In this document: positions 395-26,000 of the stretch, one piece after another
Numbering within the stretch: position 1 is the first letter of the stretch
Layout of the letters: every line of letters begins with the position of its first letter
Source of the DNA: a virus
Lineage: Duplodnaviria; Caudoviricetes
IMG/VR virus record: IMGVR_UViG_2524614847_000004
Coordinates: 32,001 to 96,000 of that record
Direction: 5' to 3' (one strand)
DNA: 64,000 bases
The notes under the pieces: model-generated
What the model was told of the DNA's origin: nothing
Databases searched by the model: none
Seen by the model: the letters and a program-made list of their open reading frames with translations, nothing else
Made by a program: the position numbers and the translations under genes

Positions 395-473
395 ATTTAA
401 TATAAAATAATGATTTTGTTTTAATTCTTTACTCCTGTAATTTTTGAAATTAAATCCATTGACTAACTCTTTG

Positions 474-1247
474 TCATATTTGTTTTCTCTTTAATAGTAT
501 TTTTACATGTGTATTGTCTCTTAAATCGATATCAAAATCTTTCTTAATCCTATCCTTTGTAAATGGTAGAATATAATGATTAAAATAAATTATTTCATAA
601 GTATCAGGAATCATATTTAAAAAACATTCTACAGTGATAGGAAGATAATTCTCTCTAAGTTCTCTTTCCCAGTTTTCTACATAACTATATTTAAGCAAAT
701 AATGAACCAAATTTCTTCTAGTAGAAATATTTCCCCAAACGGATATGAAGTCACTTAGCTGTTTACTATTTGTTCTCTTTTGTAGCTTTAATATATCATT
801 AATTTCTGCCTCGGCATTAATCGCATAGCTACTCATTAAATCTCTAATAGAAATATATTTAAATCCACCGTTAAATACATTTGACCAAAATTCTTCAATA
901 GTATTACTTGACGAATAAGAATACACTTCATGGATCACGCTACTTAAATTTAATAGAGATGTATTATTATTTGCTATATCAGTTATTTTCTCAAAAAATT
1001 CAGCGGCCTTACAATTTCTTTTAGCAAGTTCTATCATCATATAATCATTGTCTATTCCCTTTAACTTCCACTCTGGAAAATCATTATGTACTTGCGCTAA
1101 AATTTGTCCATCAGCACAGCCAAAGTCAACAAATGTATCTATTGAATCATCGATTAGTCCCTCGAAAAACAATTTATCTTTAATAGACTTTTTCATTCCA
1201 GAATTATATATTTTATAATCTTTAATCGACGTGTTAATTTTTCTCAC
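474..1247 (-). CDS. Class I SAM-dependent methyltransferase
   Basis: VDFGCADG motif I, then GID; LSSVIHE motif. Confidence 0.75.
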   Translation of the reverse strand: MRKINTSIKDYKIYNSGMKKSIKDKLFFEGLIDDSIDTFVDFGCADGQILAQVHNDFPEWKLKGIDNDYMMIELAKRNCKAAEFFEKITDIANNNTSLLNLSSVIHEVYSYSSSNTIEEFWSNVFNGGFKYISIRDLMSSYAINAEAEINDILKLQKRTNSKQLSDFISVWGNISTRRNLVHYLLKYSYVENWERELRENYLPITVECFLNMIPDTYEIIYFNHYILPFTKDRIKKDFDIDLRDNTHVKILLKRKQI

Positions 1248-1282
1248 TCCTTTCTCATAAACAAAGATTTTATGTAAAAATA

Positions 1283-1597
1283 CTAATTTTCTTCTTCAAA
1301 CGGATCAGGACAAAACACCTTATCCCGCCATGTCAGTTTCTTATAGTTTGCCTCACAGGTTGGGCACTTGTGACCCACAATCACAGCGTCTGCCGCACCG
1401 GGATAATAACCACCCAGGCTATCTCCTACCTGCTCTCCGCACCTTGCACAATTAAAGTATCCAAAGCAGAACTTCTGGATTTTACTGTGACCAATAAGGC
1501 TACAAGTAATCTCCTTTTTCTGCTCATCATCAGTAACTCCTAACATATCTAATTTTTCATGAAGTTCCTTTTCATCTTGAATTTCTAATCTTGCCAT
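1283..1597 (-). CDS. Cys-rich hypothetical phage protein
   Basis: ORF with RBS; two CxxC pairs. Confidence 0.6.
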   Translation of the reverse strand: MARLEIQDEKELHEKLDMLGVTDDEQKKEITCSLIGHSKIQKFCFGYFNCARCGEQVGDSLGGYYPGAADAVIVGHKCPTCEANYKKLTWRDKVFCPDPFEEEN

Positions 1598-1646
1598 CTT
1601 TCTTCCTCCTATTTCTCCATTGAAAGGTTCATTTTATCAGCGGTTA

Positions 1647-2840
1647 CTAACCAGCTCTCCTTATCCTTCTTAATTCGTCTTCTAGCTTTGCTATTTGCCT
1701 ATTAAGATTTCTTTCTTCCAATCCATTTCGACATCTTCTTACATGGCTTCTCAAATCTACTATTTCACGCCTGATACGTTCCTCTGGTGTTACTTCTCTC
1801 ACTCGCTCCACACTTGTCGTAGTTAGATTTGAGCTAATAATACCAGCTTGAGTTGAAAGATTTCTCCATGCTTCCATAAAACTATCCGAAAAATCAGTTC
1901 CCAAAACTCTTGTGTTGCTACTAAATTCAACTCCCATTCCGTTAAAATTAGTTTCTAAAGACTGAAATTTCATTCGAAGAAGACGCTTAGATTCTTCATC
2001 TTTTTTCTTTATCTCTTCTCTTTCAAAAATGTATCCGTTCAACTCATTAGAAAATTGAGTTTTAATCTTATCCCATGTTACATACTGAATTTCATAAATG
2101 TCCGTTTCTTTTGCAATTTTTACCATTGCACAAACGAATTCCAACGTACTAATGTATGTATTGTAATTCAGAGTCCCCTTGAAAATTCGAATCTCTACGG
2201 TGTCTTTATGTTTTAAATTAATTGCACCATATTTATCTGATGCCTGGGACTTAGCGTATAAATCAATAGGAGTGTCATCTTCTTCAAGTAAAAATCTCCT
2301 GGCAAATCTGTTACTGGATCTTCTGGCGATTAACTCTACTTTATCCCAGTACTTTTCGAACAAATACAGTAATTTACTAATACACAGATCTCTCGTAAGC
2401 TTGTCTTCCCCAAAAAAGCTCCTGTTAATATGAACATGCAGCCCGCAAGTTGAAGTATCATGTGAACGATATTTATTTTTTACCAACCATTCAAACATTT
2501 CTTCATAATCTAACTGTTTGTGATAATCGAGCGTACATGGGTGGGTCACTATTTCAAATCCATCATTTAGACTGCCATCGTGTTTGCAATAAATATTCTC
2601 ACTTTCTCTATTCATGACATTGCAAATATGTCTCGCCTTATCCTCATCTTCTCCGCCACTATCAATTTCTAATTCAACGCCAAGATATAGTCTATCTTCA
2701 TCTGCAACTTCATGAAACATGTACTCTTTTGGTATATAATTCCATGATTTTATGTATTTTTTAATGCCAGCTAATTTTTGATCTTGATAAAAACATCTAT
2801 TATATAATCTGTTAAAATCCCATTCGCCCTCGATCGGCAT
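1647..2840 (-). CDS. Putative amidoligase (COOH-NH2 ligase type)
   Basis: GVELE, HDGSL, GFEIVTHP, CGLHVH and VEIRIF motifs. Confidence 0.8.
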   Translation of the reverse strand: MPIEGEWDFNRLYNRCFYQDQKLAGIKKYIKSWNYIPKEYMFHEVADEDRLYLGVELEIDSGGEDEDKARHICNVMNRESENIYCKHDGSLNDGFEIVTHPCTLDYHKQLDYEEMFEWLVKNKYRSHDTSTCGLHVHINRSFFGEDKLTRDLCISKLLYLFEKYWDKVELIARRSSNRFARRFLLEEDDTPIDLYAKSQASDKYGAINLKHKDTVEIRIFKGTLNYNTYISTLEFVCAMVKIAKETDIYEIQYVTWDKIKTQFSNELNGYIFEREEIKKKDEESKRLLRMKFQSLETNFNGMGVEFSSNTRVLGTDFSDSFMEAWRNLSTQAGIISSNLTTTSVERVREVTPEERIRREIVDLRSHVRRCRNGLEERNLNRQIAKLEDELRRIRRAG

Positions 2841-2885
2841 CTAATCACCTACTTTCTAAACAAAACACGAGTTTTCTCGTAACTA

Positions 2886-3242
2886 CTAACTCCGGTTCCC
2901 AACATGATTATACATTCCAAGTTCTTCAAGCGCATTTGCAATCTCATTTTTAAAGTCGCTTGGTTCTTGTTCATAATCATCTAACATCTCATCAATCTCG
3001 AATTTATTACGTAGACATATGTACAAATACTCAGCTAATCCGATGACTGAAAAACCATCTACCTCAATATCTGAAAATCTTTGCATATTACCATTTAAGT
3101 AATGGCAAAATCCGTCTGCTCCAACAAAAACTTTTGTGTCCTTTTTAATTATTTCCTTATAACCAAAACACTTTTTAACCTCATCATCTTCCTTATATTG
3201 AAGCATTTGTCCGATACCATAAACCACTTTCTTATCACTCAT
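2886..3242 (-). CDS. Hypothetical phage protein
   Basis: ORF with RBS in the minus-strand array. Confidence 0.6.
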   Translation of the reverse strand: MSDKKVVYGIGQMLQYKEDDEVKKCFGYKEIIKKDTKVFVGADGFCHYLNGNMQRFSDIEVDGFSVIGLAEYLYICLRNKFEIDEMLDDYEQEPSDFKNEIANALEELGMYNHVGNRS

Positions 3243-3262
3243 ATTTTTCTCCTCTCATTTTT

Positions 3263-3610
3263 CTAAGCAAATACGCACTTAATAAAATCATTAGCGGCTT
3301 CCGATATTGATTTGGTATTTCTAATCACATTTTTTATGTATAGTTGGTATGTATATTTATCATTGGAAAATTTAATATCAACTGCATCAAAGACTTTTGA
3401 TATGCTTAAATTCTTAATATTACTCATATCCAAGTATTCTAAAGGCTTCTTATCAATGCTATCTTCTAAAATAACTTGTCCATCAAAGAGTTCGGCCTTA
3501 TATCTGCCAAACTTATACATCTTTCGTGTTGCATCATTAGCTTTCGATAACAACATATCATTGCCCCCATTATCAATAACCAATTTTATAATTTTTGCTG
3601 CATTATTCAT
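3263..3610 (-). CDS. Hypothetical phage protein
   Basis: ORF in the minus-strand array. Confidence 0.55.
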   Translation of the reverse strand: MNNAAKIIKLVIDNGGNDMLLSKANDATRKMYKFGRYKAELFDGQVILEDSIDKKPLEYLDMSNIKNLSISKVFDAVDIKFSNDKYTYQLYIKNVIRNTKSISEAANDFIKCVFA

Positions 3611-3689
3611 TCTATATCTCCTTTAGGTTTGTATTTTCTCATTATTGTCTTATAATTTAAACGCCATCCACGGCGTCTAAATTATTACA

Positions 3690-4631
3690 CTATTTTAATG
3701 TTTTTAATAATGGAGCATAAACCTTATAATTAAATACAAAATTCTTTACAGGTGATTTTATGCCCCATTGCTTAAATAGACCAACAATTATATCTACATC
3801 ATATCTACTAGTTCTTCCTTCTGGATCATATTCCAAAATTTCAATTAAGCGCTCTTTGCCAATTTCGTTTATTAATCTATTTATAACTCCTGAATCGTTA
3901 ATGAAATTGTATTCAAGTTCTATTGAGATAATTTTATTTGATATCTGTTTAGATCGTTTTACAGCATCATCAGCTACAATATCACTGCCACGTTTTAAAA
4001 TATCTCTTATAAGAGAAGAATTTTCATCATAAAACTCTAAATTTCCATTCCTGCTAGAGTAAAATGAATCCATCGCATACATCCCTTTTATGGCATTTAT
4101 TAAATCATCTGAAATTGGCAGATATACGCCACCACTATACATTGTTTTACCCACAAAATCCACATCTTCATATTTTATAGATGCTAGGGTTTTTAAATCC
4201 TGTACTCCCTCGTATAAGGCTAAACATATAGAGAGATAGTATGGATAATTATAGCCAGCTTCTCTACAAGCACTGTCAATATACTCTTTAGTATACAGCT
4301 TTATATTGCCATGAGCTGCAATTTTATCAATCAAGTATTCCTGGGTAAACAGGATCGAGTTATAGAATGGACTATATTTAATGAGTCCCTTCTCGATACA
4401 ATAATTGTAAAATGATCCAAACTCACTTACTACCTTTGAAACGTGAAGTAATCTATAATATTGCTTTATAATAATAAAGTAGTCAAATAAGTTCTGATCA
4501 GTAAAGTGTATAAGATCAATACCACACTCTCCCTCATAATCTAATATACCTGTTCCGCAAATAAATTTCGCCACCTCACCTTGCCTTTTTGTTTCATTAG
4601 CAAACTGATCTAATATTTCTCTAGAATCCAT
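3690..4631 (-). CDS. Catalytically degenerate tyrosine-recombinase-fold protein (MrpR/YopR-like repressor candidate)
   Basis: SAM-like N-terminus (FYNYCIEKGLI...PF); box I-like LALYEGV...IKYEDVDF without the catalytic Arg; no HxxR, H or Y. Likely start MDSRE at 4631. Confidence 0.6.
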   Translation of the reverse strand: MDSREILDQFANETKRQGEVAKFICGTGILDYEGECGIDLIHFTDQNLFDYFIIIKQYYRLLHVSKVVSEFGSFYNYCIEKGLIKYSPFYNSILFTQEYLIDKIAAHGNIKLYTKEYIDSACREAGYNYPYYLSICLALYEGVQDLKTLASIKYEDVDFVGKTMYSGGVYLPISDDLINAIKGMYAMDSFYSSRNGNLEFYDENSSLIRDILKRGSDIVADDAVKRSKQISNKIISIELEYNFINDSGVINRLINEIGKERLIEILEYDPEGRTSRYDVDIIVGLFKQWGIKSPVKNFVFNYKVYAPLLKTLK

Positions 4632-5124
4632 TTGTGGCACCCACCCTTTCGTTCCGAAGTTTGGAAATCTTATCATAAATTCCCTTTTGGATATCCATAG
4701 TATAAGCTATTCTCTCCAGAACATCAAGGTCGTCAATATATCCAATTTTATCATATACGTAACATGATGGTATCTGAGTTTCACATTCTGCTAACAGAAT
4801 AGAATCATATGGCAGCCCAAACTGTCCAGACTGAAAATAGGTATGTGTAGGTAAGTACTTCTTTTCTTTTGATGTAAATGGAATAACGTGTACATTTCCA
4901 TTCACAGCTTTGTTGTTCATATTATTAGATACAATAAGCACTGGCCGCTTGCCCCTCTGCATATGACAATCAACTCCCACTTCAGGTAAGTATGCCCATC
5001 TAATTTCGCAACATTTGATTACATCTTTAATGTTTCTTGCCGCCGGTTTATTGTCATTTTTCCCATTGTAAACAAAAAATGTAGATGTATTAATCTTCTT
5101 GCAACATGTAGTTAAATCTTCCAT
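4621..5124 (-). CDS. MazF/PemK-family endoribonuclease-like protein
   Basis: QRGKRPVLIVSNN, VIPFTS, LPTH and DSILLAE motifs. Confidence 0.85.
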   Translation of the reverse strand: MEDLTTCCKKINTSTFFVYNGKNDNKPAARNIKDVIKCCEIRWAYLPEVGVDCHMQRGKRPVLIVSNNMNNKAVNGNVHVIPFTSKEKKYLPTHTYFQSGQFGLPYDSILLAECETQIPSCYVYDKIGYIDDLDVLERIAYTMDIQKGIYDKISKLRNERVGATNGF

Positions 5125-5180
5125 TCATATCAACCTCCCGTTATCTTTTACTTAGGTTTGTATTTTCTTTTCATGTTTAG

Positions 5181-5209
5181 ACTATAACACATCACACACT
5201 ACATGTCAA
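5181..5209 (-). promoter_or_regulatory. SigmaA-type promoter for the mazF-like/repressor operon
   Basis: TTGACA-17 bp-TATAGT with TG extension. Confidence 0.7.
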
Positions 5210-5235
5210 TAGGTTTATAAATTCTTTTTTAATAT

Positions 5236-6210
5236 TTACACAAAATTTTCTGATATCATGTCATTTAAACAATTGAGATTGTCCACATCGATCTCTCCAG
5301 CATTTCCAGCATCATTCTTCCCAGTAAAGTAAGCCATTCTGATAATTTCAAATAACTTCTCTTTACTTATAGATACAATATCTTTTCTTGATGCTTGATA
5401 GGTGTTGTCCATAATTTGCGTGTAAGTATCTCCCACAGTATCGACCATATCTTGACACTGTTCGTCATCGATTCCAATATACCGTTTGGTAATATCCTGT
5501 GAAGAATGACCAAGATAGTGCATTAGATCAACTAGAGCTGCACTCTGATTTTTTGCGTTTATATAATACCAATATCCAAATGTCTTTCGAAGTGTATGCG
5601 TTCCAATATTAATTTTGATTTCAGCCACCTTTGCTGCTTCTTTAATCATATAATAAGCATTTTTTTCGGGCATGAATTTCTCATCTGCCCTATTATCAGA
5701 TCTGCATGTTCTGAAGATAAAATTGCTTACATCGATAGTTTCGTTAGTAAGGTTCAAATATTTATCTATGGCGTGTTTTACATTATTATTAATTTTTGTA
5801 GTACGATACCTGCGAAACCTCTCAGTTTTCTTATCTAGCTTTCTTATACCGATTTCTTTATATCCACCAATCTCGTCAATCAGGTCTCCCCATGTAAGCC
5901 TCACTATATCAGAAATCCGGTATGCCGTATTTAAACCTATAATAATAAGAAGATAGTTCCTAGCTGCTGTCAATACCCGATATTCCGTATCAGCCTTTGA
6001 AATACATTGTTCAAAATATCTTATAAATCGAACTAAGTCATCAGGGTTTTTAATTGGATGCACCAATGTGGATTTCCCCCGATTTTTCCCTACTTTCTTT
6101 TCGCTCTTTTCAATTGCCTTACCTGTTTCGATACTATAAACTTGACAATTCTTTGCATCTTGATAATTATCTGGCTCATTAGCTAATATTCCCATAGTTG
6201 CTCCTTTCAT
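5236..6210 (-). CDS. Tyrosine recombinase/integrase
   Basis: TAYRISD, HTLRKTFG and LGHSS...RY: R-HxxR-H-Y intact. Confidence 0.9.
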   Translation of the reverse strand: MKGATMGILANEPDNYQDAKNCQVYSIETGKAIEKSEKKVGKNRGKSTLVHPIKNPDDLVRFIRYFEQCISKADTEYRVLTAARNYLLIIIGLNTAYRISDIVRLTWGDLIDEIGGYKEIGIRKLDKKTERFRRYRTTKINNNVKHAIDKYLNLTNETIDVSNFIFRTCRSDNRADEKFMPEKNAYYMIKEAAKVAEIKINIGTHTLRKTFGYWYYINAKNQSAALVDLMHYLGHSSQDITKRYIGIDDEQCQDMVDTVGDTYTQIMDNTYQASRKDIVSISKEKLFEIIRMAYFTGKNDAGNAGEIDVDNLNCLNDMISENFV

Positions 6211-6501: not shown

Positions 6502-6607
6502 AACTTTATCCTCCTACAAAGTTTGTTTACTTTATATCCCCTCTATCATTTTATACCCAAATCTTAATACTTCATAATGTCTAATCCTTCATCAATCTTA
6601 GATTTTA

Positions 6608-6988
6608 TCAACTATCTTCTTCAAAATACACAACTTCATTTTCTTTTAACGGACACCAATCTTTAATAGACTCATATACATATCTTACCATTCTGCCATC
6701 ATCGTCGAAATCATCATAATTTTCATTTTCTATCAGATTCTTTAACCAATCAACAATATCCAAAAGCACTTTTTCTGAAACTATATTATATTCTTCTCTT
6801 ATCCAATGAATATCATCTCTTTGCTGATAAAATCTGTCTAAAACAGGTTTGTAACTATTAACCTCATCTATTGTTGCCTTTTGGATGTCATCATATAATA
6901 AGTAGCCACCTATATGATGAATTTTGGTTTTATCAGCTTTAATTAAGTACATATCATATCCCACAAATTCACCCCCATTGAATCTCAA
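6608..6988 (-). CDS. Hypothetical phage protein
   Basis: ORF track. Confidence 0.55.
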   Translation of the reverse strand: MRFNGGEFVGYDMYLIKADKTKIHHIGGYLLYDDIQKATIDEVNSYKPVLDRFYQQRDDIHWIREEYNIVSEKVLLDIVDWLKNLIENENYDDFDDDGRMVRYVYESIKDWCPLKENEVVYFEEDS

Positions 6989-7392
6989 ATTTCATTAACT
7001 TTATCATTAATTATTTTTTCAACAAGGCTTTCTGCGTTACTAGATAAATACCTTAATCTTTGTCCCTTAGGCATACCTGTTTCTTGCCATTTTATTTTAT
7101 CTATAACTTTAACTTCTTTAAATTGACTATTATCATACGCTTTAATATATTCTTCTGATTTATGATTCCAATATTTATCATCAGGTGCTGTATTATTACG
7201 TGAAAAGCTACATAGCCCACCCGTCCTTAAAATATAAGCATTGTCTCCATATCTAATTACAAAACAGTCGCCTTTTGATAATTCACCAATATTTAACGTA
7301 GAAACAGATAAAAATATCTCTGCCTTGTCATTAACCGCATCTTCGAATTTATACACAGATTGTTTTAAAACTCTTGCTTCTATCATACTCAT
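6985..7392 (-). CDS. Hypothetical phage protein
   Basis: ORF with RBS. Confidence 0.6.
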   Translation of the reverse strand: MSMIEARVLKQSVYKFEDAVNDKAEIFLSVSTLNIGELSKGDCFVIRYGDNAYILRTGGLCSFSRNNTAPDDKYWNHKSEEYIKAYDNSQFKEVKVIDKIKWQETGMPKGQRLRYLSSNAESLVEKIINDKVNEI

Positions 7393-9391: not shown

Positions 9392-10474
9392 CTATCTCAG
9401 TTTAACAGCGTTCCTATTTTCTCTTTTTTTCTCGTCTTCTAGTGCCACATAGTGCCGTTTGGCAGTGTTCACATCTGCATGGCCCAATGTACCAGCAACT
9501 AGGTAAATGTCCCCTGTGGCTTTATATAAAGCCGTCCCATAGCTCCTTCTAAGTGTATGGGGAGTAACCTTCTTCTGGATCCCAGCCAGTCTTGCATACT
9601 TAGGAATTAAATCTTCTACACTTCTGGTTGATATTCGTTTGTTCTGTAGAGATAAAAATAGAGCATTCTCATGCCCTTTGATTGCTTCCACCTGTTTTCT
9701 TTCTTCTAAATAAAGTTCCAACGCCGATCTGGTATCATCACTAAAATATACAGTTTCTTCTTTTCCTCCTTTTCGGTATATTCTGATTCCACTGTTTTTG
9801 AAATCTACGTTGTTAATGTCCAATCCAATACATTCGGAAACACGGATTCCTGTGGTAAGTAGCAACATGATTATTGCCAAATCTCGCTTCCGTGTTATTT
9901 CAAAGAATGAACGTTCTCTTCCTTCTAAACCTCCACCAGTTTCTACCACCTGGATAAATGCTTTCATTTCGTCACTGTCAAGACGTACTATTTCTTTGTC
10001 ATGCAATTTGGGAAGCTGCACAAGCGACGCTACGTTATTCTTTATCCTCTCATTCTGATAAAGATATTTGTAGAATGCTCTTAATGCCGATATTTTGCTC
10101 TTTAGGCTATATTCCCCGTTTGTATTTTCATTCCCTGAATCATCACTCCAACATTTTAGCCATTCCATATATTTTTCAAAATCAATGACTTTCAGGTTTT
10201 CCAACACATCAAGAGTAATTGACTCCATATTTGTAGCTTTACTGCTTCTAATTAAATAATCAAAGAAGAGCCTTAAATAACCGGCATAAGCAATCCTTGT
10301 CTTGGAAGAAGTTCTCGGTTCAATCCCACGAAAAAAGTCTTCGCAATAGGATGGCATTGTGGATATAATGCTCCTAAGTTTCTTTATATTCTGGATATCA
10401 TTCTGTTCATGATATGTCATGATACTACCCCCGTTTTTATTCCGACTAATATCAGTTTGCGTGCTCTTTCTCAT
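9392..10474 (-). CDS. XerC/XerD-like tyrosine recombinase
   Basis: TGIRVSE, RKGGK, PHTLRRSYG and LGHAD...HY motifs; likely start MTYHEQ. Confidence 0.92.
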   Translation of the reverse strand: MRKSTQTDISRNKNGGSIMTYHEQNDIQNIKKLRSIISTMPSYCEDFFRGIEPRTSSKTRIAYAGYLRLFFDYLIRSSKATNMESITLDVLENLKVIDFEKYMEWLKCWSDDSGNENTNGEYSLKSKISALRAFYKYLYQNERIKNNVASLVQLPKLHDKEIVRLDSDEMKAFIQVVETGGGLEGRERSFFEITRKRDLAIIMLLLTTGIRVSECIGLDINNVDFKNSGIRIYRKGGKEETVYFSDDTRSALELYLEERKQVEAIKGHENALFLSLQNKRISTRSVEDLIPKYARLAGIQKKVTPHTLRRSYGTALYKATGDIYLVAGTLGHADVNTAKRHYVALEDEKKRENRNAVKLR

Positions 10475-12645: not shown

Positions 12646-12936
12646 TTAATCTATACCTTTAATCATTTGAGAGGCCGCATTATAGTCTTCCGTTTCTACA
12701 TAAATGCAATAGTGCATAACATGCTCTCCGTTCATACCATAGCTACCCGTTCCAATAAAAAAAAGTTGTAGAAGAAAACGAAACCAACTGTCATTTTTTT
12801 TTGTGGATTCTAAGTATTTTATTCCATTGGAGTCTAATTTATTTTTTATAAGCAAGAATGACTCTAAAGAAGTTCCCGTGTATAATATTTTCTTTTCTTT
12901 CATTTTCATAATAATCCTGCCATCTTTGATAACCAA
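12646..12936 (-). CDS. DUF2007-like small protein
   Basis: KNKLDSNGI...YCIYV...DY pattern. Confidence 0.5.
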   Translation of the reverse strand: MVIKDGRIIMKMKEKKILYTGTSLESFLLIKNKLDSNGIKYLESTKKNDSWFRFLLQLFFIGTGSYGMNGEHVMHYCIYVETEDYNAASQMIKGID

Positions 12937-13041
12937 AAATATACTTTTTATAATAGTTACAAGTTTTAGTATACAAGAGATCTACCCTAAATGTCAAACT
13001 TGTTCCACTAAATAGCGCAATTAGATATCAATGTATTTAGT

Positions 13042-13650
13042 TTAGTAATTTACATTGCACTCTATTGCTACTTGGTCAGAACCTATTTTTGCGTTTAGAG
13101 TTGCTCCTAAAAAGAAATCCAAGCCATATCCAATTTTTCCTGGCTTAAATCCAGTAGTTAGGTCAACAGCTTTCTCTAGTATCGTAGTATGGCCCTTTTT
13201 TGAATTAGTTCCTAAAACTTGTCCATAACTAAGATTCATATTAGAAATAGTACTATTCCCACTTTCTTTCTCCCAACGTGCAAAAACACGCTTCAAACAT
13301 GCATACTTTCCATCATCGGTATAAGTAATTTCTACAGTCCCCTTATAGCCGTTCAAAGTATCTTCATTTGTTTGACTGGCTCTAGTCATTATACGTTTAT
13401 CCTCTATGTTAAATGTACTAACAAAGACTCTTTCGCCATCTTTATCAATCACACTTTGAGTACTAGATTCATTAAGATTATATTGAGTTACTTTACCAGT
13501 CTCAGTATTTGTTATTGTTACACGCGTACTAGGTACTGGAGTAGTTCCATTGCTCGCATAGGTAGTTCCCGGTATAGATATAATGCCTAATACCAAACTA
13601 GAAAATAATACTCTTTTCAACACTTTACTTATAGCTTTTTTTGCACTCAT
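13042..13650 (-). CDS. Secreted protein (moron)
   Basis: Sec signal peptide ending TYA; beta-rich body. Confidence 0.65.
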   Translation of the reverse strand: MSAKKAISKVLKRVLFSSLVLGIISIPGTTYASNGTTPVPSTRVTITNTETGKVTQYNLNESSTQSVIDKDGERVFVSTFNIEDKRIMTRASQTNEDTLNGYKGTVEITYTDDGKYACLKRVFARWEKESGNSTISNMNLSYGQVLGTNSKKGHTTILEKAVDLTTGFKPGKIGYGLDFFLGATLNAKIGSDQVAIECNVNY

Positions 13651-14033
13651 AATAATATGACCTCCCTAGTTATTTTACAATTTTTTAAAGTATCCTTCCT
13701 ATTTATATCAAAAATTATCTTATCATTGGAATCATCTCCTAGTGCTTATTTATTATGGTTTCACATTCATTATATAACTTTACATAATAAATTCAAACAC
13801 CAACATGTCGCATTTTTCGACACTTTTGTTTATTCTTAAGTTTTTCTTGTGGTATAATTAACAGTTTCTTAGCAATTTTCGAATTTTATATTAATATATT
13901 TAAATTCCTGATTTTATGGCAATAAAAGACCAACTACCGAATATTGATAGTTGGCCGTATGTATAACTTTAATTACTATAATGTTTTATATACAATGCCA
14001 ACCATTTGGCATAAGCAAATTTGTCCAACGAAC

Positions 14034-14837: not shown

Positions 14838-15202
14838 ACTTTTACCTCACTTTATATTTTCTTACTTTTTACTACTTCTTGCCATTTTAGTATATCATCC
14901 TTCTTTATAATTACAATATCCTAAGTAGTAAGAAGGAGCTAAAAGTATGACAGAGAAACCTTATAAAGTAAAAGTAAACGTATCTTTAGATGAAAACGTG
15001 ATTGCAAATCTCTTTTCTTTTGATATCAAGTTCTATTCTTTTGTTGCTATTTCTAGTTTTAAGATACTAATCGTTTAAAACTTCTGTTCTTTCTTTTAAA
15101 ATATCTATAGTTTTATTAATTCCTTTAATCATCTCCTTATCAAATGAAAGCACACTTTGATTGCAACAAAAAAGGAACCTCTGTATTATTCGGTTCCTTT
15201 TA

Positions 15203-16680: not shown

Positions 16681-16998
16681 TATAATTTCCTCCCCTTTTA
16701 TGTTCTCCTCTGCAAGTCAAACGAGAAATAACATACCCTATTAACGCTCCTATAGAAACACTTCCTATTAAAAAATAAAACGATTCCATACGTCCTCCTT
16801 AACTATAAAATGTGCTTTTCATTCTGGCATTGCATATAATATTTCATCTCTTACCATATAATAGCGGAAATTCGCCATCTCTTCTGTGAGTTCACCGTTT
16901 TCGACCATTTCATCACATTCTTTTTGTAATTCTTCACATGCCTTTTTATATCTTTCTCCAAAATCGCTCATATTTACACCTCCGTTGAAACCTGTCTT

Positions 16999-17199
16999 TT
17001 ATTTTACTTTTTCAACAATAGCTTTTTTCCCTTCAATTTTTACTACATATTCTCCATGTTCATAAAACGAAACAGTTAATGGAAATTGAAAATCATTATA
17101 TCCTCCGCTAAAAGAACAAGAAGCAAATCTAAAGTTTCCCTTTCCCCCTCCCATTACTATATCTTCAGTTACTACTCTTACTTTTTTTTCTTTAACCAC
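16999..17199 (-). CDS. Hypothetical phage protein
   Basis: ORF with RBS. Confidence 0.5.
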   Translation of the reverse strand: MVKEKKVRVVTEDIVMGGGKGNFRFASCSFSGGYNDFQFPLTVSFYEHGEYVVKIEGKKAIVEKVK

Positions 17200-17562: not shown

Positions 17563-17604
17563 ATTGTCTTTCTCCTTTTTATGTTTTCTGCATCAAATTA
17601 CAAT

Positions 17605-18624
17605 TCAATTATCTTTTATATCATACATTAATTCGCACCATTTTATGGCAGTAAATGTGATTTCTGGGTTATTTGAGAACCACTTATTATTTATCATATA
17701 TGGTAAGAATCTTTTTTTAATGCAATACAAATTATCTTTGCTTAAATCTGTAGTATTGCCGTTTAAAAAGGTTATTTGGCAATCATCTTGCACTTTCTTA
17801 TTATGATATTCTTGCCATTTTATTCTGGAAAGTGGTTCAAAAATTTCACTCGACTTTTGCTTATTTCCTAGTTTATAATTTGATTTATTTATTTTGACAT
17901 ATATTCTACCACTCATATTTATTTTATGCCCAATAGGTCTGCGTCTAGCATTAAATTTATGAGGATCGTCTTTTTTAAGTTTTAGCTTTCTAAAACAATA
18001 AGTTTCTATTGCCGCCACTGTACAGTCTTTTTTGAAAAGTTCATTGAATTTTTTCGTCATCTCATCATATGTATAATTATTAAAATTATCGCTGATCCAA
18101 TCAACCTCTATTTCCGAAAACGGAACATATCTTTTCAACTTTAATACATTTTGGCAATGCAAAGAAAAACTATGCAATGATCTTTTCCTATCAAATACAT
18201 TATTAAATTCGCTTAGAAGGCCTTCAAAAGTGTCAAACATATAGTAATTTGTTATTATCCATTCGTCTTCTTGCGGTAACCATAACTTCATATGAATTCC
18301 ATTTTTTGATAAAAACCCAAGAATGACAGACATATTTCGTTTAGAAAAAATTTTGTTGTGTTCCTCAACAAAGTCATTAATTTTATATTTTCTACAATTA
18401 TCAATTAGCCATTCAATTTCTTTTTCTGTAAATCGGTTTTGATTATCCATTTTTAATTTTAAATCTTTATTAATTTTCGTCATGATCGCAGCTTTGCTTC
18501 TTTGATTAGAAAAGCGTAAATTATAGTCAGATACCAATCCATCTAAACTATCGTACGTTTTGTCTATTACACTTTTCTTTATCCATTCGGTTTCTTCTTC
18601 TGTATACTTTGTTCCCTTTGGCAT
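17605..18624 (-). CDS. Protein with about four N-terminal helical repeats and a degenerate C-terminal HNH-like domain
   Basis: Repeats YTEEETEWI/FTEKEIEWL/WLPQEDEWI/FSEIEVDWI; C-terminal RIKWQEYH...ITFLNGNTTD...NL. Confidence 0.6.
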   Translation of the reverse strand: MPKGTKYTEEETEWIKKSVIDKTYDSLDGLVSDYNLRFSNQRSKAAIMTKINKDLKLKMDNQNRFTEKEIEWLIDNCRKYKINDFVEEHNKIFSKRNMSVILGFLSKNGIHMKLWLPQEDEWIITNYYMFDTFEGLLSEFNNVFDRKRSLHSFSLHCQNVLKLKRYVPFSEIEVDWISDNFNNYTYDEMTKKFNELFKKDCTVAAIETYCFRKLKLKKDDPHKFNARRRPIGHKINMSGRIYVKINKSNYKLGNKQKSSEIFEPLSRIKWQEYHNKKVQDDCQITFLNGNTTDLSKDNLYCIKKRFLPYMINNKWFSNNPEITFTAIKWCELMYDIKDN

Positions 18625-18881: not shown

Positions 18882-20259
18882 TTACATTTGATTCATTCCA
18901 CAAACCTTTAAATTCAATACCTGTAAAGACTCCACATATTCATCAATACTATTCTGTGAAGCCGTGTCAGTTACAAGCTCCTTTGCCTTCGCAGCATTCA
19001 CGATAAGGCTTATTAAACCATTACTGATAATTTCCAGTTCTTTATTTGAAAACTTATCCATTACAATCTCCTTCCTGATTTTGAGCAAAATAAAAGCAAC
19101 CGGTTATATTCCGATAGCTCACATCAAACGTGCATTTTATTAGTTACTTATGTCACACCAATATCCATCAAATATAGCAGTTGCGGAATAAAATTTACCT
19201 TTTGTAAGTTGTATTTTTATACCTCTACTTTCCATAACTCTATATAATTTATCCAATGAAGACTTTTCTTTAACATTTACAAATATTCTGTCTTTCAAAA
19301 CGCCATTATGAATTAATGTGATACTTGGCGCTTCTTTTTCTAATTCTTCAATAACTTCAATCATATTAATATCCATAAATCATTCCTCCTTAATCTACAA
19401 TTGAAAGACATCATTCATCGTACACTTAACGGTATACAGAAGTGATCACAACGCATATTGCCTACTTTGTGTTGTTTATCTTCGTCATAATAAACCATAG
19501 CATATTCATCGCCATCGTAATCTATATATTTTGATGTTTCATCCAACCAATAATAACTTCCGACTTCAAGTTGTCCGGGCATTGCTTCTCTTTCTGAAAT
19601 ACATCTTACTGTTTTCATATTCTCTCCATTCCGTACCAAAGAAAGGTACATTTTATCTGTTATTAGTTAAATGTTGAAACCTCAAACTCTTCTTTAGCTA
19701 ATACAAAAGTGAACGTTACTTCTCCGTCGGAATTTTGAAGACTTACGGTTGAATCATTTTCTTCAATTATCAGACAAGTTTCACCGTCCATACACACAAG
19801 TTCGCCCGTGACCTTATCTCTCAAATCATAATAATGATTGCCGTTTTCTTCTTGATAAGTATGATCTATATAGTTGTGTGTTAAAACTTCTCCATACTTC
19901 TCAAATAATGATTTTATACTGATACATTTTTCTTTCAATTTGTTTTCCTCCATTTATACGTTAAAATTGCGTTTTCAACTGAAATTCGCCCTTTATTCAC
20001 ATGTTATATAATAGAAACCAGTACATTCATTGACTTCCCCGTTTCTTTCATCATCTACGGGGTCAAAGTAACCAGTTGTAGCAACGTCTGTCACTCCTAT
20101 ACTTTCTAAAAAATCTGCTATTACATTTGCAATGGTTTCTGTTTCGCACATGATATCATCTCCATTTGTCCATATCCCAGGATTATCATCACATGGTTTA
20201 GGCTCCTTGGGTAAGCTTTCTAATATCTGCTCATATGTGATCATTGTTTCTTCCTCCAT
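18882..20259 (-). other. Run of five small hypothetical ORFs (18882-19088, 19140-19376, 19415-19651, 19663-19953, 19993-20259)
   Basis: ORF track; separated by copies of the junction motif. Confidence 0.55.
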
Positions 20260-20534: not shown

Positions 20535-23015
20535 CTACGCTGTTTTTATATTTTCTTGTTCACTCTTTTCAATTACTATAATCTTACTTGCTACTCCTGT
20601 CATTTCAAACGTACCACTTTTTAAATCTTCTGTGAAATATGTTTCATTTTCTAACCATTGTCTAAACTCAATTGATTTTTTATCATTGGCAAAAGTCCAA
20701 TGTGGTGAAGAAATAGAAACAAGCGTACCACCATCTTTTAATAAATCATAAGCGTGTTTAATATGATTCTGTTCATCACTAAAAGGCGGGTTCATGATAA
20801 TGGCATCATAAATAGGTTCGCTCTGATACTGTAGAAAATCATCACCGACAAGATTATAGTCTTTAAGTAAAAGCAATTCTCGAAAAGTTGACATCTGCTC
20901 CACAACATCAATATCATTTGTAATTTTTCGCATTTCATCAGCGATGGCAGCAATTCCGGCAGAAGGCTCAAGCACTTTAGCCCCCTCTGTAATTCTTGCT
21001 AATTCAACAAGTCTTTGTGCAACCTCTGAAGGTGTGAAATTAATATCCCCTTTCTGCATCATCTTACATTCACGTTCAAGTCGTTTTATTTTCAGTGCTG
21101 TTTGATCTTGTGGTTTATTTACCATTTCAATAATTACTTTGTATTCCTCAATGGTTTTAACTAATTCTTGTGTATTTGAGATATTAGCCTTTTGAAGACG
21201 TTTCTGCGTTTTGGGTACTTCTTCATTCCACCACGAATTGGGATAATTCGGGTCTTTTTCTGGATATTCTACCGGTCTAGCAGAGGAAGGACGTTTTCCC
21301 TCTGGTAAATTCCACGTTTCAAACCGTTTATAGTAACTATGAATTGAATCACGGAATGATTCTGTTAATAGAGCAGCTTCAAGCGAAGTTAGTTCACGTT
21401 TCTGTGCTGTATCAAGAAGACAAGAAAGTATATTTAAGTCTAGCCTATAACCTTCTATTTTCGCCTCACGCCCCTCTTGTTCCCTCATACGCTTATAGGT
21501 ATTTGTTTTATAATCCCCCGACAATTTATCAATTTTGCTTTGTGTACTGCTAATTGCTTTGTTAATACGTTCTATAATTTTTGTTCTATCCTGCTGTTTT
21601 GGCCGTGCCGTTTGGTTATCCTGTGTGGATTCCTCTGTTGTTGTATCATTTCCTCTGTTTAACACTTCTGTAGGATCATATCTAAATATAAATCCATGCT
21701 TAAATTTAGAGTAGTAGGCATCGATTTTTTTCATTTCGACACGTAAAGCAGAAAAGTCTTCCACTTTTTCTCTAACTTTTACAACCCACATTTTAGAATC
21801 GTCTCTTGTGTCGGTGTCTTCTGCGATATCATAGGTATAGGCAGCTGAAACAGATACTTTCTGTTTATCTGCTTCTGAGGTAGTAGTTTCGGATTCTTTT
21901 CCCTTTGTCTCCGCTTTGCTATTTCCGATGGACTTTTTAACCACCTTTTCCACTTCATATGGTGTTTTTACTTCCTTAAGTTCACACCATGAAATAGCTC
22001 CCGTTTCAATCCACTTTAAGAACCTCTCTCCAAAGGTCCCCCATCTGTTGTTACTTGAGGCAATTCCGGTACACTCTTTTGTAAGTTTTCCATTGAGTTT
22101 ATAAGCATAAAAATAAGATCCGTTTTCCGTTTTGCTTTCATGAATGCGGTAAACAAGACCTTTATAACAATTGTGGTTATATCTAGTTTTAAGGATAAAA
22201 CACTGACCCTCTTTAATTTCTCCTGCCTCCACTTCTACGGCCTTTGTTTCGTTCTTATATTCTGTAACGATAACTTTCTCATAAATAGTACCGTCACCTT
22301 CTCCAAGAAGTCCACCGCAAGTGGTATCTATTTTATTGATAAACTTGTCAAAATCTGATTTTAATTTTAAAGTTTCTTCCTGTTCTTCCATCTGGTATTT
22401 GACTGATTTTTCTAATTCCACATCATTAAACCAACTACAACCGCTATTTGTTCTTCTTATCTGTTCTCTAATTTCATCCTCTGTTCTTTTCTTGTAGTTC
22501 TCCTTATAATAGATACCAGAATATTTTAAAATTCCGTTGCCTTTTGCAATGATGATTCCGTCTTTTTCTATGTGCCAGTTGCATTTATTGGGGTGGGCCT
22601 GATGCCCTGGGACCATTCCGACAACGACGTATTTCTCTTTGTTTTCTGTTGCTGCCTCTGCTTTCTTCTGCAATCGCTCAATCATCATTTTGGCGCTTTC
22701 CGCTTCTGATTCAGATGCTCCACGCTCTACGGTCATTGCTTCCAGCTTCTTAATTTTGTCTGTAATGCTTCTATCATAAGAAAAATCTGTATGATTATAT
22801 TTTCTAATTTCTTGCGGCTCCCTTGCTCCGCAAACGTCAACACAAAGAACATATCCGTTCTTTTCTGCAACACCGTCCCAAGTGGCAGGGCAATAATAAT
22901 CCGTCATGCTGTCGGACTCGTCTGGTGAATAGCCATATACTTTCCAACCATCAAGAGCCATTAACCTATGGGCTATCATCACTTTAACTTCCCTATAATC
23001 ATAATAATTTGACAT
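20535..23015 (-). CDS. Polyvalent protein with a C-terminal N6-adenine DNA methyltransferase domain
   Basis: FTP...VLEPSAG...IMNPPF motifs; long N-terminal multidomain region. Confidence 0.8.
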   Translation of the reverse strand: MSNYYDYREVKVMIAHRLMALDGWKVYGYSPDESDSMTDYYCPATWDGVAEKNGYVLCVDVCGAREPQEIRKYNHTDFSYDRSITDKIKKLEAMTVERGASESEAESAKMMIERLQKKAEAATENKEKYVVVGMVPGHQAHPNKCNWHIEKDGIIIAKGNGILKYSGIYYKENYKKRTEDEIREQIRRTNSGCSWFNDVELEKSVKYQMEEQEETLKLKSDFDKFINKIDTTCGGLLGEGDGTIYEKVIVTEYKNETKAVEVEAGEIKEGQCFILKTRYNHNCYKGLVYRIHESKTENGSYFYAYKLNGKLTKECTGIASSNNRWGTFGERFLKWIETGAISWCELKEVKTPYEVEKVVKKSIGNSKAETKGKESETTTSEADKQKVSVSAAYTYDIAEDTDTRDDSKMWVVKVREKVEDFSALRVEMKKIDAYYSKFKHGFIFRYDPTEVLNRGNDTTTEESTQDNQTARPKQQDRTKIIERINKAISSTQSKIDKLSGDYKTNTYKRMREQEGREAKIEGYRLDLNILSCLLDTAQKRELTSLEAALLTESFRDSIHSYYKRFETWNLPEGKRPSSARPVEYPEKDPNYPNSWWNEEVPKTQKRLQKANISNTQELVKTIEEYKVIIEMVNKPQDQTALKIKRLERECKMMQKGDINFTPSEVAQRLVELARITEGAKVLEPSAGIAAIADEMRKITNDIDVVEQMSTFRELLLLKDYNLVGDDFLQYQSEPIYDAIIMNPPFSDEQNHIKHAYDLLKDGGTLVSISSPHWTFANDKKSIEFRQWLENETYFTEDLKSGTFEMTGVASKIIVIEKSEQENIKTA

Positions 23016-23027
23016 TGTAATTACCTC

Positions 23028-26000
23028 CTAGTACCCATAATATAATTCAATTATTTTTTCCTTTTTTAGTTGTTCTATTTCTATATCATTTATATCTATA
23101 TTAGAGTATGACTGTTTTAAAGTTTCTTTGGCTTCAATTTCAACATCCGCAAATATAATGCCCACAACTATTTCTCCACAGTTTCTAAAGTAATATTTAT
23201 ACATACAATAACCTCCATTGTTTTTCATTTATTCCCACTATAAAAGCCACCGGAACATTGCCCAATGGCTTCAAACTGAAAATAAATATACTACATTGTT
23301 TCTCTTTGCTCTTCCGTATTAATTGCTAATGCTTCGTAATAATCTTCCTTGCAAATTTCATCACTTGTATTTGTTGGAGATATCCACTTGTCACAGCTTT
23401 TAAAATATTCGGAATATTGACAAAAATATTTTTCTGAGGTTTTAAAATACTCCCATCTTCTCCCGTTTTTCTTATCATATAAGAAAAAACTATTTTTATG
23501 TGTATGATAACCCATTTTATTACCCCCTTAAAAGTACTATTTATTTATCATAATTATTGATCCAGTCTTCCGCTGCTTCTACTGTATCAAATTCCATATC
23601 AGAGTCAGAAGGACTGCACATATAGGCATATTCCATATTATCAGGGTGTAAAACTGTTATGTTGAATCTATATTCTTCTAATTCCTTATTATTGTTCTGG
23701 TAAATTCCCCAACCTTTAAGCTTCTTAACTCTCTTCATTCTGTTTTACCTCTCAACCAAAGAATAGTTTTATTGTATTACGGTTCTTGAATCTCATTAGT
23801 AAAATTCTCTAACAGTATCTCCAATCGTAATATCTTAGCTTCTGTTTTTTTAAGTTTTTTTAAGGCAGTTTGAAAAGAAATGTCTGTTTGACATTCTGAT
23901 AAATCAATTATTATTTTTATCAAATCTTCTTTTCTGTCCTTTTCTGCTTCAATATCATCTGTTATTAGATTATAAATGTCTACATATAAATCCTTTGTCA
24001 TTTTGATTTACCCCCACTCATAAAATAAGAATTTCAAAGCAATCCCTTTTCAATCGCTTGTTCTGGCCTTCCTCCCTCAATATATGGAAGCAAGTGTCTT
24101 TTATCTTTACGATAGTTTCCTGCACCATCATATATAAGTGCGGATTGTTCGCTTGAAAGTTTCATAGCCTTGTTGTGGTATTTCGTACAATAAGGCTCTG
24201 TATTATTGCAAGCAGTAGTTAAACGCTGATATTTACGTATTTCAATTTCAAGTTCAATAATTCGTTTATCCTCTTCTGAAAGTTTCATGTATTTTCCCTC
24301 CATTTCTCAATGCTGCGGACTTGTGACCGCTTGACTTGTGTCAAGTGCATTAAAGCAGCCCTTATAGGCTGCTCCACTCTGCTTATACTACTTCAAGGTA
24401 TAAATCTTCAATATCGTAGTTTACTAACTCGTCTTTAAAATCTTTTCGCCAAGTGTTACAATTTTTCTCAAACCTTTTTTTATTGCAATCCCAAATTGAT
24501 GTAATAATGTCACCATTTTTATGCCTTATTTGTGCTTGATACTTATTATTTTTCACTGCCTTTCCCTCCATGAAATTCGGTTTTTATTTACCACACCTTT
24601 TCATATTTAACGGAACATACACGGTCAATTAAGTCATCAATTTTTATCTGTATTGGCTTTTCCAATTCTTTTAATTCTTCATAAGATATATCACAAATAT
24701 CATAAAGTGCATCTCGTTTATCCTGTAAAGCTCTTAATTCAGATTCTAGTTCTTGTAATATCTTTGAATTTTTATTGTTTAAAGTTCTTTCTCTGTAATG
24801 ATCTCTTCTTGTATAACCGATACTTCCATATAAGGACATCTTAATTTCTCCTATCAAATAATTGTTTCATTTAATAAATGTTTTAAAAATAAGAATTTCT
24901 ATCTTTTACTAATTCTTGTATTATTTCTTTCATTTCGCTGATATTATCAGCAACTCTTGACCTTGAAAATCCGTCTTTCCACTTCATTACAATACAAATA
25001 TGTTTATCTTCCCTATACAAATCACTAATAAGATGTTGATATTTTTTAGGAACATAATTGATTAAATTTTTCATTATATCACTCCCTTAATAAATTTGAA
25101 TATTCTATTTCACTTCTATAAAATGTTTAGTTATGCCTCTACCACTTCTAAAATATATTTTCCGTTATCGGCTTTATGCACATTAAATTTCTTAACACAC
25201 TGAAACTTTAATGGAATTTCTGAAACTGAAAAGGAATATAAGAACGACATATTATCATTGTAAAATTCCACTGTTTCAATTTCTTCTCCGTACATAAGCA
25301 TATCAATCAATTTTTCTAAGTTAATCTTATTTGTTTTCATCTTCAGTCCTCCCAATGAAATGGATATTCTATGCCACTTCTATATCATTGATGTACGTCA
25401 ACGTATTTGTTCTCCAGTGACCAGCTTCTATATACTCTGCCTGAATGTTTTCCGCGTAGCCGTACATATTCAAATTATGCACCGATATTCTTAAGCCTGA
25501 TAATTCCATAATGCAATACTTTGTTTTGCCTGTATCCTTGTTTAATACTTTGTAAGGGATAAAGTCCAGATAGACAAAGTACTTTTTCCCTTCCGTACTT
25601 GACATAGCATCACATACCGCAAAGCCGTCTATAATTCCGGTTTGTTTCATTGCCTGATCGTGAATTGATTCCACGATATCCGTCGGAATTTTGCTTTTAA
25701 GTAATGAAAAATCGTATAAATACTTTTTATTGTTGGTAAATTCCTTCTTGTTTTCCTTCAGATCTGGAAATGACTTTTTCATTTTCGCCATGCTCGGCAG
25801 ACAGTTCAATGTATTGTATTTGTTCATTTTAAAATCTCCCTTTCAAAAGTTTAAAATCGTACCGCCTAGATGAATTTTCTGTACTCCGGTATGTCCTGTT
25901 TCTACATTCTCAAAAACTAAAGTTTCCGATTCGATTTTAATATTTGGTGACATGATGTTTAATATCTCTCTGCACCTTTTTGCTGATAATGTAGGCATGT

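Follow-up and report, generated by a model that had tools for sequence, protein, structure and literature searches.

The origin of phage mosaicism at gene boundaries is a long-standing question. Over several decades, conserved 'linker' sequences have been suggested as an answer, and concrete cases of them are few. In integrons, the attC sites are imperfect palindromes of 57–141 nt with paired R and L boxes, which recombine as folded single strands at one attI, and the array has this single attI with the promoter Pc at its head and a changeable order of cassettes. The sites loxP (Cre of phage P1) and dif (XerCD, 11-6-11) have inverted arms around a spacer of 6–8 bp, and exchange takes place only between identical spacers; in nature, a replicon has one or two such sites, whose arms are 11–13 bp long. 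The stoperators of the Cluster A mycobacteriophages are about 30 short sites of a repressor (gp71 in L5) in tiny intergenic gaps, often overlapping stop or start codons; they are asymmetric, 13–14 bp long, in one orientation and without a site-specific variable centre, and we know of no report of them as exchange joints. In T4-type phages, the promoter-early stem-loops (PeSLs) of Arbiol et al. (2010) are promoter-plus-terminator cassettes recombining by homology, according to the available part of that article (PMC2839356), and in SPbeta a repeated element (SPBRE) at about ten promoters is bound by the recombinase-fold repressor MrpR/YopR (PMC10516654, available part). Here we analysed a window of 64,000 nucleotides, bases 32001–96000 of one 135,533-bp phage genome with 34% G+C (IMG/VR record IMGVR_UViG_2524614847_000004), whose long minus-strand early arm of small genes carries 16-bp palindromes of the form TRAAA-N6-TTTYA at the gene junctions. 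Comparison with relatives shows each site to be a constant dyad around a six-base centre apparently unique to that site, which we call its 'address'. As judged from these comparisons, the sites are very probably joints at which genes are exchanged, and it is probable that a dedicated protein binds them.

Palindromic sites at the junctions of early genes

With the flanking W positions (W-TRAAA...TTTYA-W) the motif covers 18 bp. The window has 14 exact copies of TRAAA-N6-TTTYA, of which 13 lie at positions up to 27337, whereas 100 dinucleotide shuffles gave 2.97 copies on average and never more than 8. When the spacer was varied from 0 to 13 bp, only the six-base spacer was enriched in the window (14 copies, with 0–9 at every other length), and the whole 135.5-kb genome has 25 exact copies at N6 against 3–13 across N3–N9. 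A weight matrix of the half-site found 74 sites at N6, 50 of which are intergenic, against 18–33 sites (2–12 intergenic) at other spacings and about 17.5 sites, at most 29, in local shuffles; this count is partly circular because the matrix was trained on N6 sites, which leaves the exact-pattern counts unaffected. Among the minus-strand junctions of the early arm in the window, 24 of 56 have an N6 site with at most one mismatch, and the control spacers N4, N5, N7 and N8 give 4, 9, 7 and 5 of 56, respectively. Of the 57 late-arm junctions, 6 have such a site, which is the level of the controls there (2–5). The shuffle, spacer and junction counts thus agree in that the inverted-arm sites around a 6-bp spacer are real.

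A preliminary description of this DNA, made from the letters alone, had listed 30 copies in the early arm. Eleven of these are exact, 10 have one mismatch, six have two and three have three (10670, 10933 and 17593). Its expectation that the sites are enriched at junctions and prefer a six-base spacer is borne out by the counts above, and its statement that the first triplet of the motif (position 1) is the stop codon of the upstream gene is correct in all ten copies for which it was made. The tandem sites at 19962 and 19980, which it had likened to an empty cassette, are a real pair, 2 bp apart; the centre of the 19980 copy has no counterpart in any relative compared. The preliminary description had overlooked two exact copies, at 25830 and 27322, as well as three sites of the matrix scan, at 6592, 6979 and 12482.

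Shared addresses and replaced genes in related phages

The phage is a distant SPbeta-like relative, a large siphophage, and no near-identical DNA was found in the phage collection searched. Six relatives were compared (L002, L006, L028, L061, L068 and L075), among which L006 is a prophage in a Lacrimispora chromosome. L028, L068, L075 and L061 were found by two scans of viral contigs with address patterns (56 and 36 loci), whose loci are mostly chance matches, and only these four have at least four common addresses. A further locus, L087, has two common addresses, both expected neighbours, and was not used, and the remaining 80-odd loci were excluded ahead of the interval and mismatch counts.

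In L006, 13 of 29 sites have a centre identical to that of a site in the window genome, 12 of the 13 being collinear; for the control strand the figure is 1 of 27. Addresses common to the window genome and in the same order number 14 in L028, 10 in L068 and four each in L075, L061 and L002. Four of the five pairs inspected closely in L006 are islands of identity of about 18–22 bp with unrelated DNA on both sides. Moreover, when 41 intervals between consecutive shared addresses in the six relatives were compared by tblastx, 33 had less than 10% cover, eight were partly similar and none was mostly similar; the lengths of these intervals vary widely between relatives, and one homologous gene occupies a different slot in L006. 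Since the same addresses stand in the same order with unrelated genes between them, the sites would be joints for the exchange of gene slots. The earlier suggestion that they delimit exchangeable gene units therefore stands, in that the relatives keep the order of the sites and not the genes between them.

The mismatches between orthologous sites are distributed unequally over the positions. In 52 collinear site pairs, the centres are mismatched at 9 of 312 positions, a count that is lowered by pairing through near-identical centres and to that extent weighs against our interpretation, whereas position 2 is mismatched in 31 pairs, position 15 in 28 and the flanks in 24–37 pairs per position (centre vs positions 2 and 15, Fisher p about 3e-33). 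Positions 2 and 15 are mismatched at the level expected for unlinked draws. Sorted by centre mismatches, 43 collinear pairs have none, 9 have one and 10 have two; the ratio of 43 to 9 is less biased by the pairing, and 43:9:10 implies a centre divergence of a few percent. The homologous genes of the same relatives differ by 10–25% in DNA. The unit conserved between orthologous sites is AAA-N6-TTT (12 bp), and the outer arm positions vary with the flanking genes. As the outer positions change together with the flanking genes and the island AAA-N6-TTT is kept, the crossovers should fall inside the site.

Furthermore, two arrays in the same genome share four consecutive addresses in order, one at genome positions 27452–29128 and the other at 124509–125804 (-4548 to -2872 and 92509 to 93804 in window coordinates). 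They are separated by about 97 kb or, should the map be circular, by about 38 kb counted over the record ends, and the genes enclosed by them show no blastn or blastp similarity. Sites of the window are listed below with the relatives in which the centre is shared.

403–418: junction palindrome, one mismatch, between two convergent gene ends
1621–1636: junction palindrome, exact
6592–6607: junction palindrome, weight-matrix site; centre common to L006 and L028, in order
6979–6994: junction palindrome, weight-matrix site; centre common to L006 and L028
7406–7421: junction palindrome, exact; centre common to L006 and L028
7625–7640: junction palindrome, exact; centre common to L006 and L028
8651–8666: junction palindrome, exact; first triplet is the stop codon; centre common to L028
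9379–9394: junction palindrome, two mismatches; first triplet is the stop codon
12482–12497: junction palindrome, weight-matrix site; centre common to L068 and found again in the same genome, at window coordinate 99336
13901–13916: palindrome, one mismatch, in a long intergenic gap; centre common to L028, L068 and a copy in the same genome at 99835
15145–15160: palindrome, one mismatch; centre common to L028 and L068, with one centre mismatch in L006
16806–16821: junction palindrome, exact; first triplet is the stop codon; blastn homology with L006 stops 4 nt past it
16986–17001: junction palindrome, exact; first triplet is the stop codon; centre common to L006
17229–17244: junction palindrome, exact; first triplet is the stop codon; identical 20-bp island in L006 with unrelated flanks
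17593–17608: degenerate copy, three mismatches; centre matches the orthologous L006 site 14795, in order
19124–19139: junction palindrome, one mismatch; identical 16-mer in L006, blastn homology begins at its edge; centre also common to L028, L068 and L061
19402–19417: junction palindrome, one mismatch; first triplet is the stop codon; centre common to L061
19640–19655: junction palindrome, one mismatch
19962–19977: junction palindrome, exact; centre common to L061; tandem partner of 19980
19980–19995: palindrome, one mismatch, 2 bp from the 19962 copy; first triplet is the stop codon
20268–20283: palindrome, exact; centre common to L006, L028 and L061
23528–23543: junction palindrome, two mismatches; first triplet is the stop codon
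23756–23771: junction palindrome, two mismatches; centre common to L002 and L075
24021–24036: junction palindrome, exact; first triplet is the stop codon; centre common to L002, L006, L028 and L075
24571–24586: junction palindrome, exact; centre common to L002, L006, L068 and L075
24854–24869: junction palindrome, one mismatch; partner with one centre mismatch in four relatives
25356–25371: junction palindrome, one mismatch; first triplet is the stop codon; centre common to L002, L006, L028, L068 and L075
25830–25845: junction palindrome, exact; past the range of the preliminary description
27322–27337: palindrome, exact; likewise past that range

The motif in SPbeta, phi3T and other phages

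SPbeta (bases 10001–134416) has 35 copies at N6 against 0–8 at N2–N11, with a shuffle mean of 3.8; 29 of the 35 are located in its early region, and the dyad there extends to about 26 bp with arms of about 11 bp. The early region of phi3T has 26 N6 copies against 0–5 at other spacings. Between these two phages, the start of homology coincides exactly with the motif's left edge in five cases, and homology ends inside the motif twice, 8 nt past it once and after the following start codon once. The junctions with the motif comprise 13 breakpoints and 9 continuous ones, those without it 13 breakpoints and 50 continuous ones. Breakpoints are therefore enriched at motif junctions (odds ratio 5.6, p=0.0013), as had been anticipated for relatives of the window phage. 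In a 15-kb stretch of Tsamsa, 9 of 11 sites are at junctions of small early genes, four of them with the stop codon as the first triplet; thus, the system is wider than the SPbeta-like phages. The motif is not described in the literature searched, a search that did not extend to the SPbeta genome paper (Lazarevic et al. 1999) or to article supplements.

A candidate recombinase and its co-occurrence with the motif

At E below 1e-3, the window phage and SPbeta have only 14 proteins in common, which include a single recombinase (yomM, the match of 59255–60547) and one HU-like protein (yonN). The HU-like protein (40821–41093) was considered as the binder and set aside as not discriminating, since its homologues also occur in phages without the motif. 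The window encodes three proteins of the tyrosine-recombinase family:

59255–60547 (+): tyrosine recombinase of the YomM family, 430 aa; gene just ahead of that for the tape-measure protein; putative enzyme of the sites
5236–6210 (-): tyrosine recombinase, 324 aa, with intact catalytic motifs; without SPbeta counterpart
9392–10474 (-): XerS/XerD-like tyrosine recombinase, 360 aa; without SPbeta counterpart

The product of 59255–60547 is 33.5% identical to SPbeta YomM over 337 aa and 42–48% identical to its homologues in Tsamsa, 949 and MT835469. In the window phage, Tsamsa and Lactococcus phage 949 alike, its gene immediately precedes the one for the tape-measure protein, in the same synteny, and the catalytic set of R, K, HxxR, H and Y is present, so that similarity, position and catalytic residues all place it in the family of YomM and Tyrovirus gp50. 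In 14 members of this family the first Arg, the Lys, the third His and the Tyr are present in 14 of 14, and the second Arg in 10 of 14. The Tyrovirus gp50, of the same protein family and at the same gene position, is described as a recombinase between the neck and tape-measure genes, a position called curious and with its role unknown, for which an 11-6-11 inverted-repeat site adjoining the gene is proposed; in the available text of that paper (PMC9703825) neither the word 'palindrom' nor dispersed sites appear. The hairpin just downstream of the gene in Tsamsa and PJN02, which we infer to be the attP proposed by those authors, has a different sequence and was rejected as an instance of the motif. 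Three tyrosine-recombinase genes per genome are found in the window phage, in SPbeta (yopP, yopR, yomM) and in three relatives (three PF00589 reading frames each), and also in Tyroviruses and Perkons according to the same available text (PMC9703825); such a set of three seems to be a characteristic that these large siphophages have in common.

The recombinases at 5236 and 9392 were without SPbeta counterpart in the protein comparison and therefore cannot serve a motif that SPbeta shares. The earlier proposal that one of the three recombinases serves the sites is thus narrowed: it fails for these two and is retained for the enzyme at 59255–60547, which is conserved in SPbeta and co-occurs with the motif. 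With a homologue of at least 30% identity, the enrichment of the motif is clear in 8 of 10 genomes and weak (2-fold) in two; without a homologue it is clear in 0 of 7 (8/10 vs 0/7, Fisher p=0.002, uncorrected for kinship). The counts of the N6 motif, with the reversed-pattern control in brackets, are as follows, N3–9 tallies being marked.

Genomes with a homologue of at least 30% identity
SPbeta: 35 (3)
phi3T early region: 26 (2)
window phage genome: 25 (10)
Tsamsa: 29 (5)
PJN02: 34 (2)
MT835469: 50 (13)
Staphylococcus SPbeta-like: 20 (10)
Lactococcus 949: 12 (6)
Perkons: 76 (38), N3–9 tally; among the matches listed, 36 of 50 are N6
BUCT082: 62 (32), N3–9 tally

Genomes with a distant homologue, 21–26% identity
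Lenus: 19 (0)
GR1: 13 (1)
6ec: 17 (10)
nattely: 11 (9)

Genomes without a homologue
TR-TP1: 33 (33), N3–9 tally
PMBT24: 50 (47), N3–9 tally
Sundance: 7 (5)
SPO1: 1 (0)
phage K: 5 (5)
A511: 2 (3)
LP65: 5 (0)

Proposed mechanism

We assume that the sites could be core-type sites of a dimeric site-specific recombinase, with the YomM-family enzyme at 59255–60547 as the best candidate. As its gene sits among structural genes, the recombinase would be made late, when many genome copies and co-infecting relatives or resident prophages would be available. Tyrosine recombinases require an identical overlap region in the partner sites; in the same manner, two sites would pair only if their six-base centres match. 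From such centre-matched pairing it would follow that exchange takes place between collinear genomes in register, whereby the variable early genes are reassorted and nothing is deleted. The sites have the form of core sites, being a strict N6 dyad, with the longer arms of SPbeta, in the 6–8-bp spacer range, and the spacers are almost identical between orthologous sites and the arms move with the flanks, with one counter-case at SPbeta 87603. That the palindromes are address-tagged crossover sites, probably served by the tape-measure-adjacent recombinase, has in our judgement close to an even chance, as far as sequence comparison goes. Taken alone, the assignment of the binder as a YomM-like recombinase acting catalytically is tentative, and we would wager slightly against it.

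More broadly, the large Firmicutes siphophages, including SPbeta, phi3T, Perkons, Tsamsa, PJN02, the Clostridia-type phage of the window and others, may possess a natural recombinase-mediated cassette exchange, in which a recombinase of the tail cluster acts on about 50 dispersed dyad sites, the centres serve as orthogonal addresses and early-gene slots are swapped in register. We regard this as a conceivable but rather doubtful generalization. The recombinase would then be made late or perhaps be virion-borne, and co-replicating relatives and resident prophages would swap single early-gene slots, probably of anti-defence genes, with no loss of essential DNA. If this were true, these phages would have a dedicated machinery for generating mosaicism that differs both from integrons and from shuffling by homology.

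Several observations weigh against a recombinase acting at these sites. The second catalytic Arg is a Lys in SPbeta, BUCT082, Perkons and the Staphylococcus SPbeta-like branch. The co-occurrence is phylogenetically non-independent, and other genes of these phages may co-vary with the motif; nattely and 6ec carry distant homologues with no or weak enrichment, and the complete relative behind L068 has no match to the recombinase of the window, despite three PF00589 reading frames. Among the SPbeta/phi3T breakpoint junctions, 13 of 26 are without the motif, and at SPbeta 87603 SPbeta and phi3T agree in the left arm but differ in the centre next to it, a hybrid site that is not predicted by centre-matched exchange alone. 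Address duplicates in direct orientation exist within the genome, i.e. the four pairs of the two arrays and two further centres (12482 and 13901), where an efficient recombinase would split the genome. In addition, the conserved arms are only 5–6 bp here, and reach about 11 bp only as the extended arm of SPbeta, against 11–13 bp in classical tyrosine-recombinase sites.

Alternative explanations

Another explanation is that the palindromes are conserved as sites of a regulator or nucleoid protein, and that homologous recombination, whether general or phage-encoded, uses the 12–20 bp of identity which they offer as micro-homology; a site-specific recombinase of their own would then be unnecessary. 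The PeSLs of T4-type phages give a precedent for it (PMC2839356, available part). The crossover points are scattered, being found at the left edge, after the left arm, inside the right arm, and 8 nt and 52 nt beyond, and half of the SPbeta/phi3T breakpoint junctions without the motif, a hybrid site combining the left arm of one site with the centre of another, and the tolerance of duplicate addresses in one genome all agree with it. Nevertheless, we consider it unlikely: 12 bp is very short for homologous exchange, the island of identity coincides with AAA-N6-TTT and stops short of the ribosome-binding region, which is equally short and equally conserved, and neither the co-occurrence with the recombinase nor, unless exchange is very frequent, the better keeping of the site-specific centres than of positions 2 and 15 is explained.

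The sites could also be purely regulatory, with a dimeric phage or host protein on the early-gene dyads acting as roadblock or operator, like the Cluster A stoperators, in order to shut off the early arm or silence the lysogen, and with breakpoints that are incidental to the junction position. Their confinement to the early arms is in line with this, and half-sites 11 bp apart suit a helix-turn-helix dimer. In SPbeta the recombinase-fold protein MrpR is itself a repressor on a repeated element, but the ten ChAP-seq peaks reported for it (PMC10516654) are all at SPBRE, which is a different sequence. The identity of our motif with SPBRE was rejected, as the k-mer common to seven of seven MrpR peak regions examined is a different, non-dyad sequence, and none of the 35 SPbeta copies of the palindrome has a MrpR peak in these data (PMC10516654). 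By BLASTP, the recombinase-like proteins of the window have no similarity to MrpR/YopR or YopP, and YopR has none to any window protein. What purely regulatory sites leave unexplained is the ordered keeping of site-specific centres amid replaced flanks; moreover, four phages of the Herelleviridae, in which small early genes are arrayed in a similar way, are without the motif, and a separate promoter-linked repeat in the window phage fits the operator role better. We therefore hold a regulatory role alone to be improbable.

This promoter-like repeat has four full copies, at 5205 (-) and 31928 (+) and, outside the window, at -24356 and -10044 (-). It consists of an A-rich stretch, a -35-like box AACCTATTGAC, a -10-like box 17 nt on and then ATACAAACC, and among others it heads the operon of the MazF-like and 328-aa genes. 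It is a better candidate than the palindrome for an analogue of the SPBRE operator.

As the sites stand between a stop codon and the following ribosome-binding site, they might act at the RNA level, by forming a small hairpin in the polycistronic early mRNA or by signalling processing or translation between its cistrons. RNA folding of six sites gave one good hairpin (z -3.67), but the other five fold no better than shuffles at z below -2. Positions 2 and 15 show no covariation, with an A-C clash on the coding strand in three of the 13 exact copies found up to position 27337, and both strands have the same symmetry. Furthermore, the copy at 403 is between two convergent gene ends, some SPbeta copies are located between a terminator and the next promoter, and no Rfam family covers the palindrome sites in an Rfam scan. 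An RNA-level signal is thus very improbable; the evidence points to a DNA-level dyad, for which a symmetric double-strand site of a dimeric protein would fit best.

The preliminary description had called the array integron-like, and some features do recall an attC array with an IntI-type integrase: the arms are inverted, the sites overlap stop codons, the units consist of one gene each and the genome encodes recombinases. This classification is not upheld, and a true integron can practically be dismissed: the sites are 16–18 bp long with a conserved island of 12 bp, five of the six folded fold no better than shuffles and hence do not behave as attC sites, and the site order is fixed in six relatives. 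Against NCBIfam TIGR02249 the 430-aa and 360-aa proteins score 27.4 and 72.2 bits (cut-off 265), the score against NF011946 is 43.4 bits (cut-off 435), and the 324-aa protein has no match to either; no attI or Pc was identified, and no search aimed at them was made. Lastly, a compositional artefact of AT-rich junctions, with their stop codons, A-rich and T-rich runs and ribosome-binding sites, deserves hardly any credence, although the genome has the G+C content given above and TRA is a stop codon, since the preference is for N6 only in shuffles and junction-matched controls, AT-rich control phages lack the motif and the centres are conserved in order across relatives.

Other features of the window

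Besides the recombinases, the window has genes for terminase, portal and tape-measure proteins, and at 34473–37217 (+) a YonO-type single-subunit RNA polymerase of 914 aa, with weak similarity to Pfam RdRP and 43% identity to SPbeta YonO and 47% to the homologue on a Clostridium phage D-1873 contig. The features of the early arm are as follows.

1647–2840 (-): amidoligase-family protein, 397 aa
3690–4676 (-): 328-aa protein without family match, one stretch of which resembles a degenerate recombinase box I
4621–5124 (-): MazF/PemK-like toxin gene (Pfam E=2e-11), overlapping the 328-aa gene
12917–13380: stretch with an alternative form in contigs of the probable source sample
20535–23015 (-): 826-aa protein, the C-terminal third of which matches phage families annotated as DNA methyltransferase; the gene is missing from the corresponding slot of L028
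24315–24383 (-): Twister-P5 ribozyme (Rfam, 52.9 bits, gathering score 37.6) in the gap between two small early genes

Neither the 324-aa nor the 328-aa protein has a sequence match in PDB. The Twister-P5 stretch of about 70 nt is the sole conserved part of its slot in L002 and L006, with 88–90% identity. In the alternative form of 12917–13380, which is present in both runs, 462 bp are replaced by 19 other letters; this form is covered to a depth close to that of the main one and could represent a variant or else a paralogous region, and the replacement bears no relation to the palindrome motif. In one sequencing run, 'joints' of about 7 kb were considered as natural recombination and rejected, as a loxP-type linker is present and they look like mate-pair library junctions.

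Comparison with known systems

The exchange points are marked by a defined 16–18-bp site with a readable address, and since the motif is present in the tractable model phage SPbeta and there is a named candidate enzyme (YomM, Tyrovirus gp50), the proposal is directly testable. If the recombinase reading holds, it would explain why a tyrosine recombinase is inside the tail-gene cluster of virulent and temperate large siphophages, give a rule that predicts which accessory (probably anti-defence) genes swap between phages, and provide a natural set of orthogonal recombination sites.

Integrons likewise have single-gene units, imperfect inverted repeats and overlap with stop codons, with a tyrosine recombinase, here a suspected one; unlike their long folded attC sites of changing order, the sites of the window are short double-strand dyads in fixed order. 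SPBRE likewise recurs between genes in this phage family, and the protein that binds it resembles a tyrosine recombinase. The stoperators are likewise many short sites at gene junctions, unlike the symmetric dyads of the window with their own centres. The closest mechanistic analogue is engineered cassette exchange with lox or FRT sites of unlike spacers, as lox and dif likewise have inverted arms around a spacer and spacer identity would explain unique conserved centres and in-register exchange; unlike these, the window genome has about 50 sites of different centres with 5–6 bp conserved per arm. The closest functional analogue in print is found in the PeSL cassettes of T4-type phages (PMC2839356), which are likewise short repeated intergenic elements in regions of small non-essential genes and bound insertions, deletions and replacements, just as gain, loss and replacement of genes are bounded by the palindromes. 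The palindromes do not have the promoter and terminator stem-loop of a PeSL, being 16–18 bp long without a G+C-rich stem and too short for two hexamers 17 bp apart. Moreover, any PeSL copy pairs with any other, which leads to mini-circles, whereas the sites of the window have their own centres and a conserved order. Thus, even if only the joint function holds, they would represent a second, mechanistically different case beside the PeSLs of the T4-type phages.

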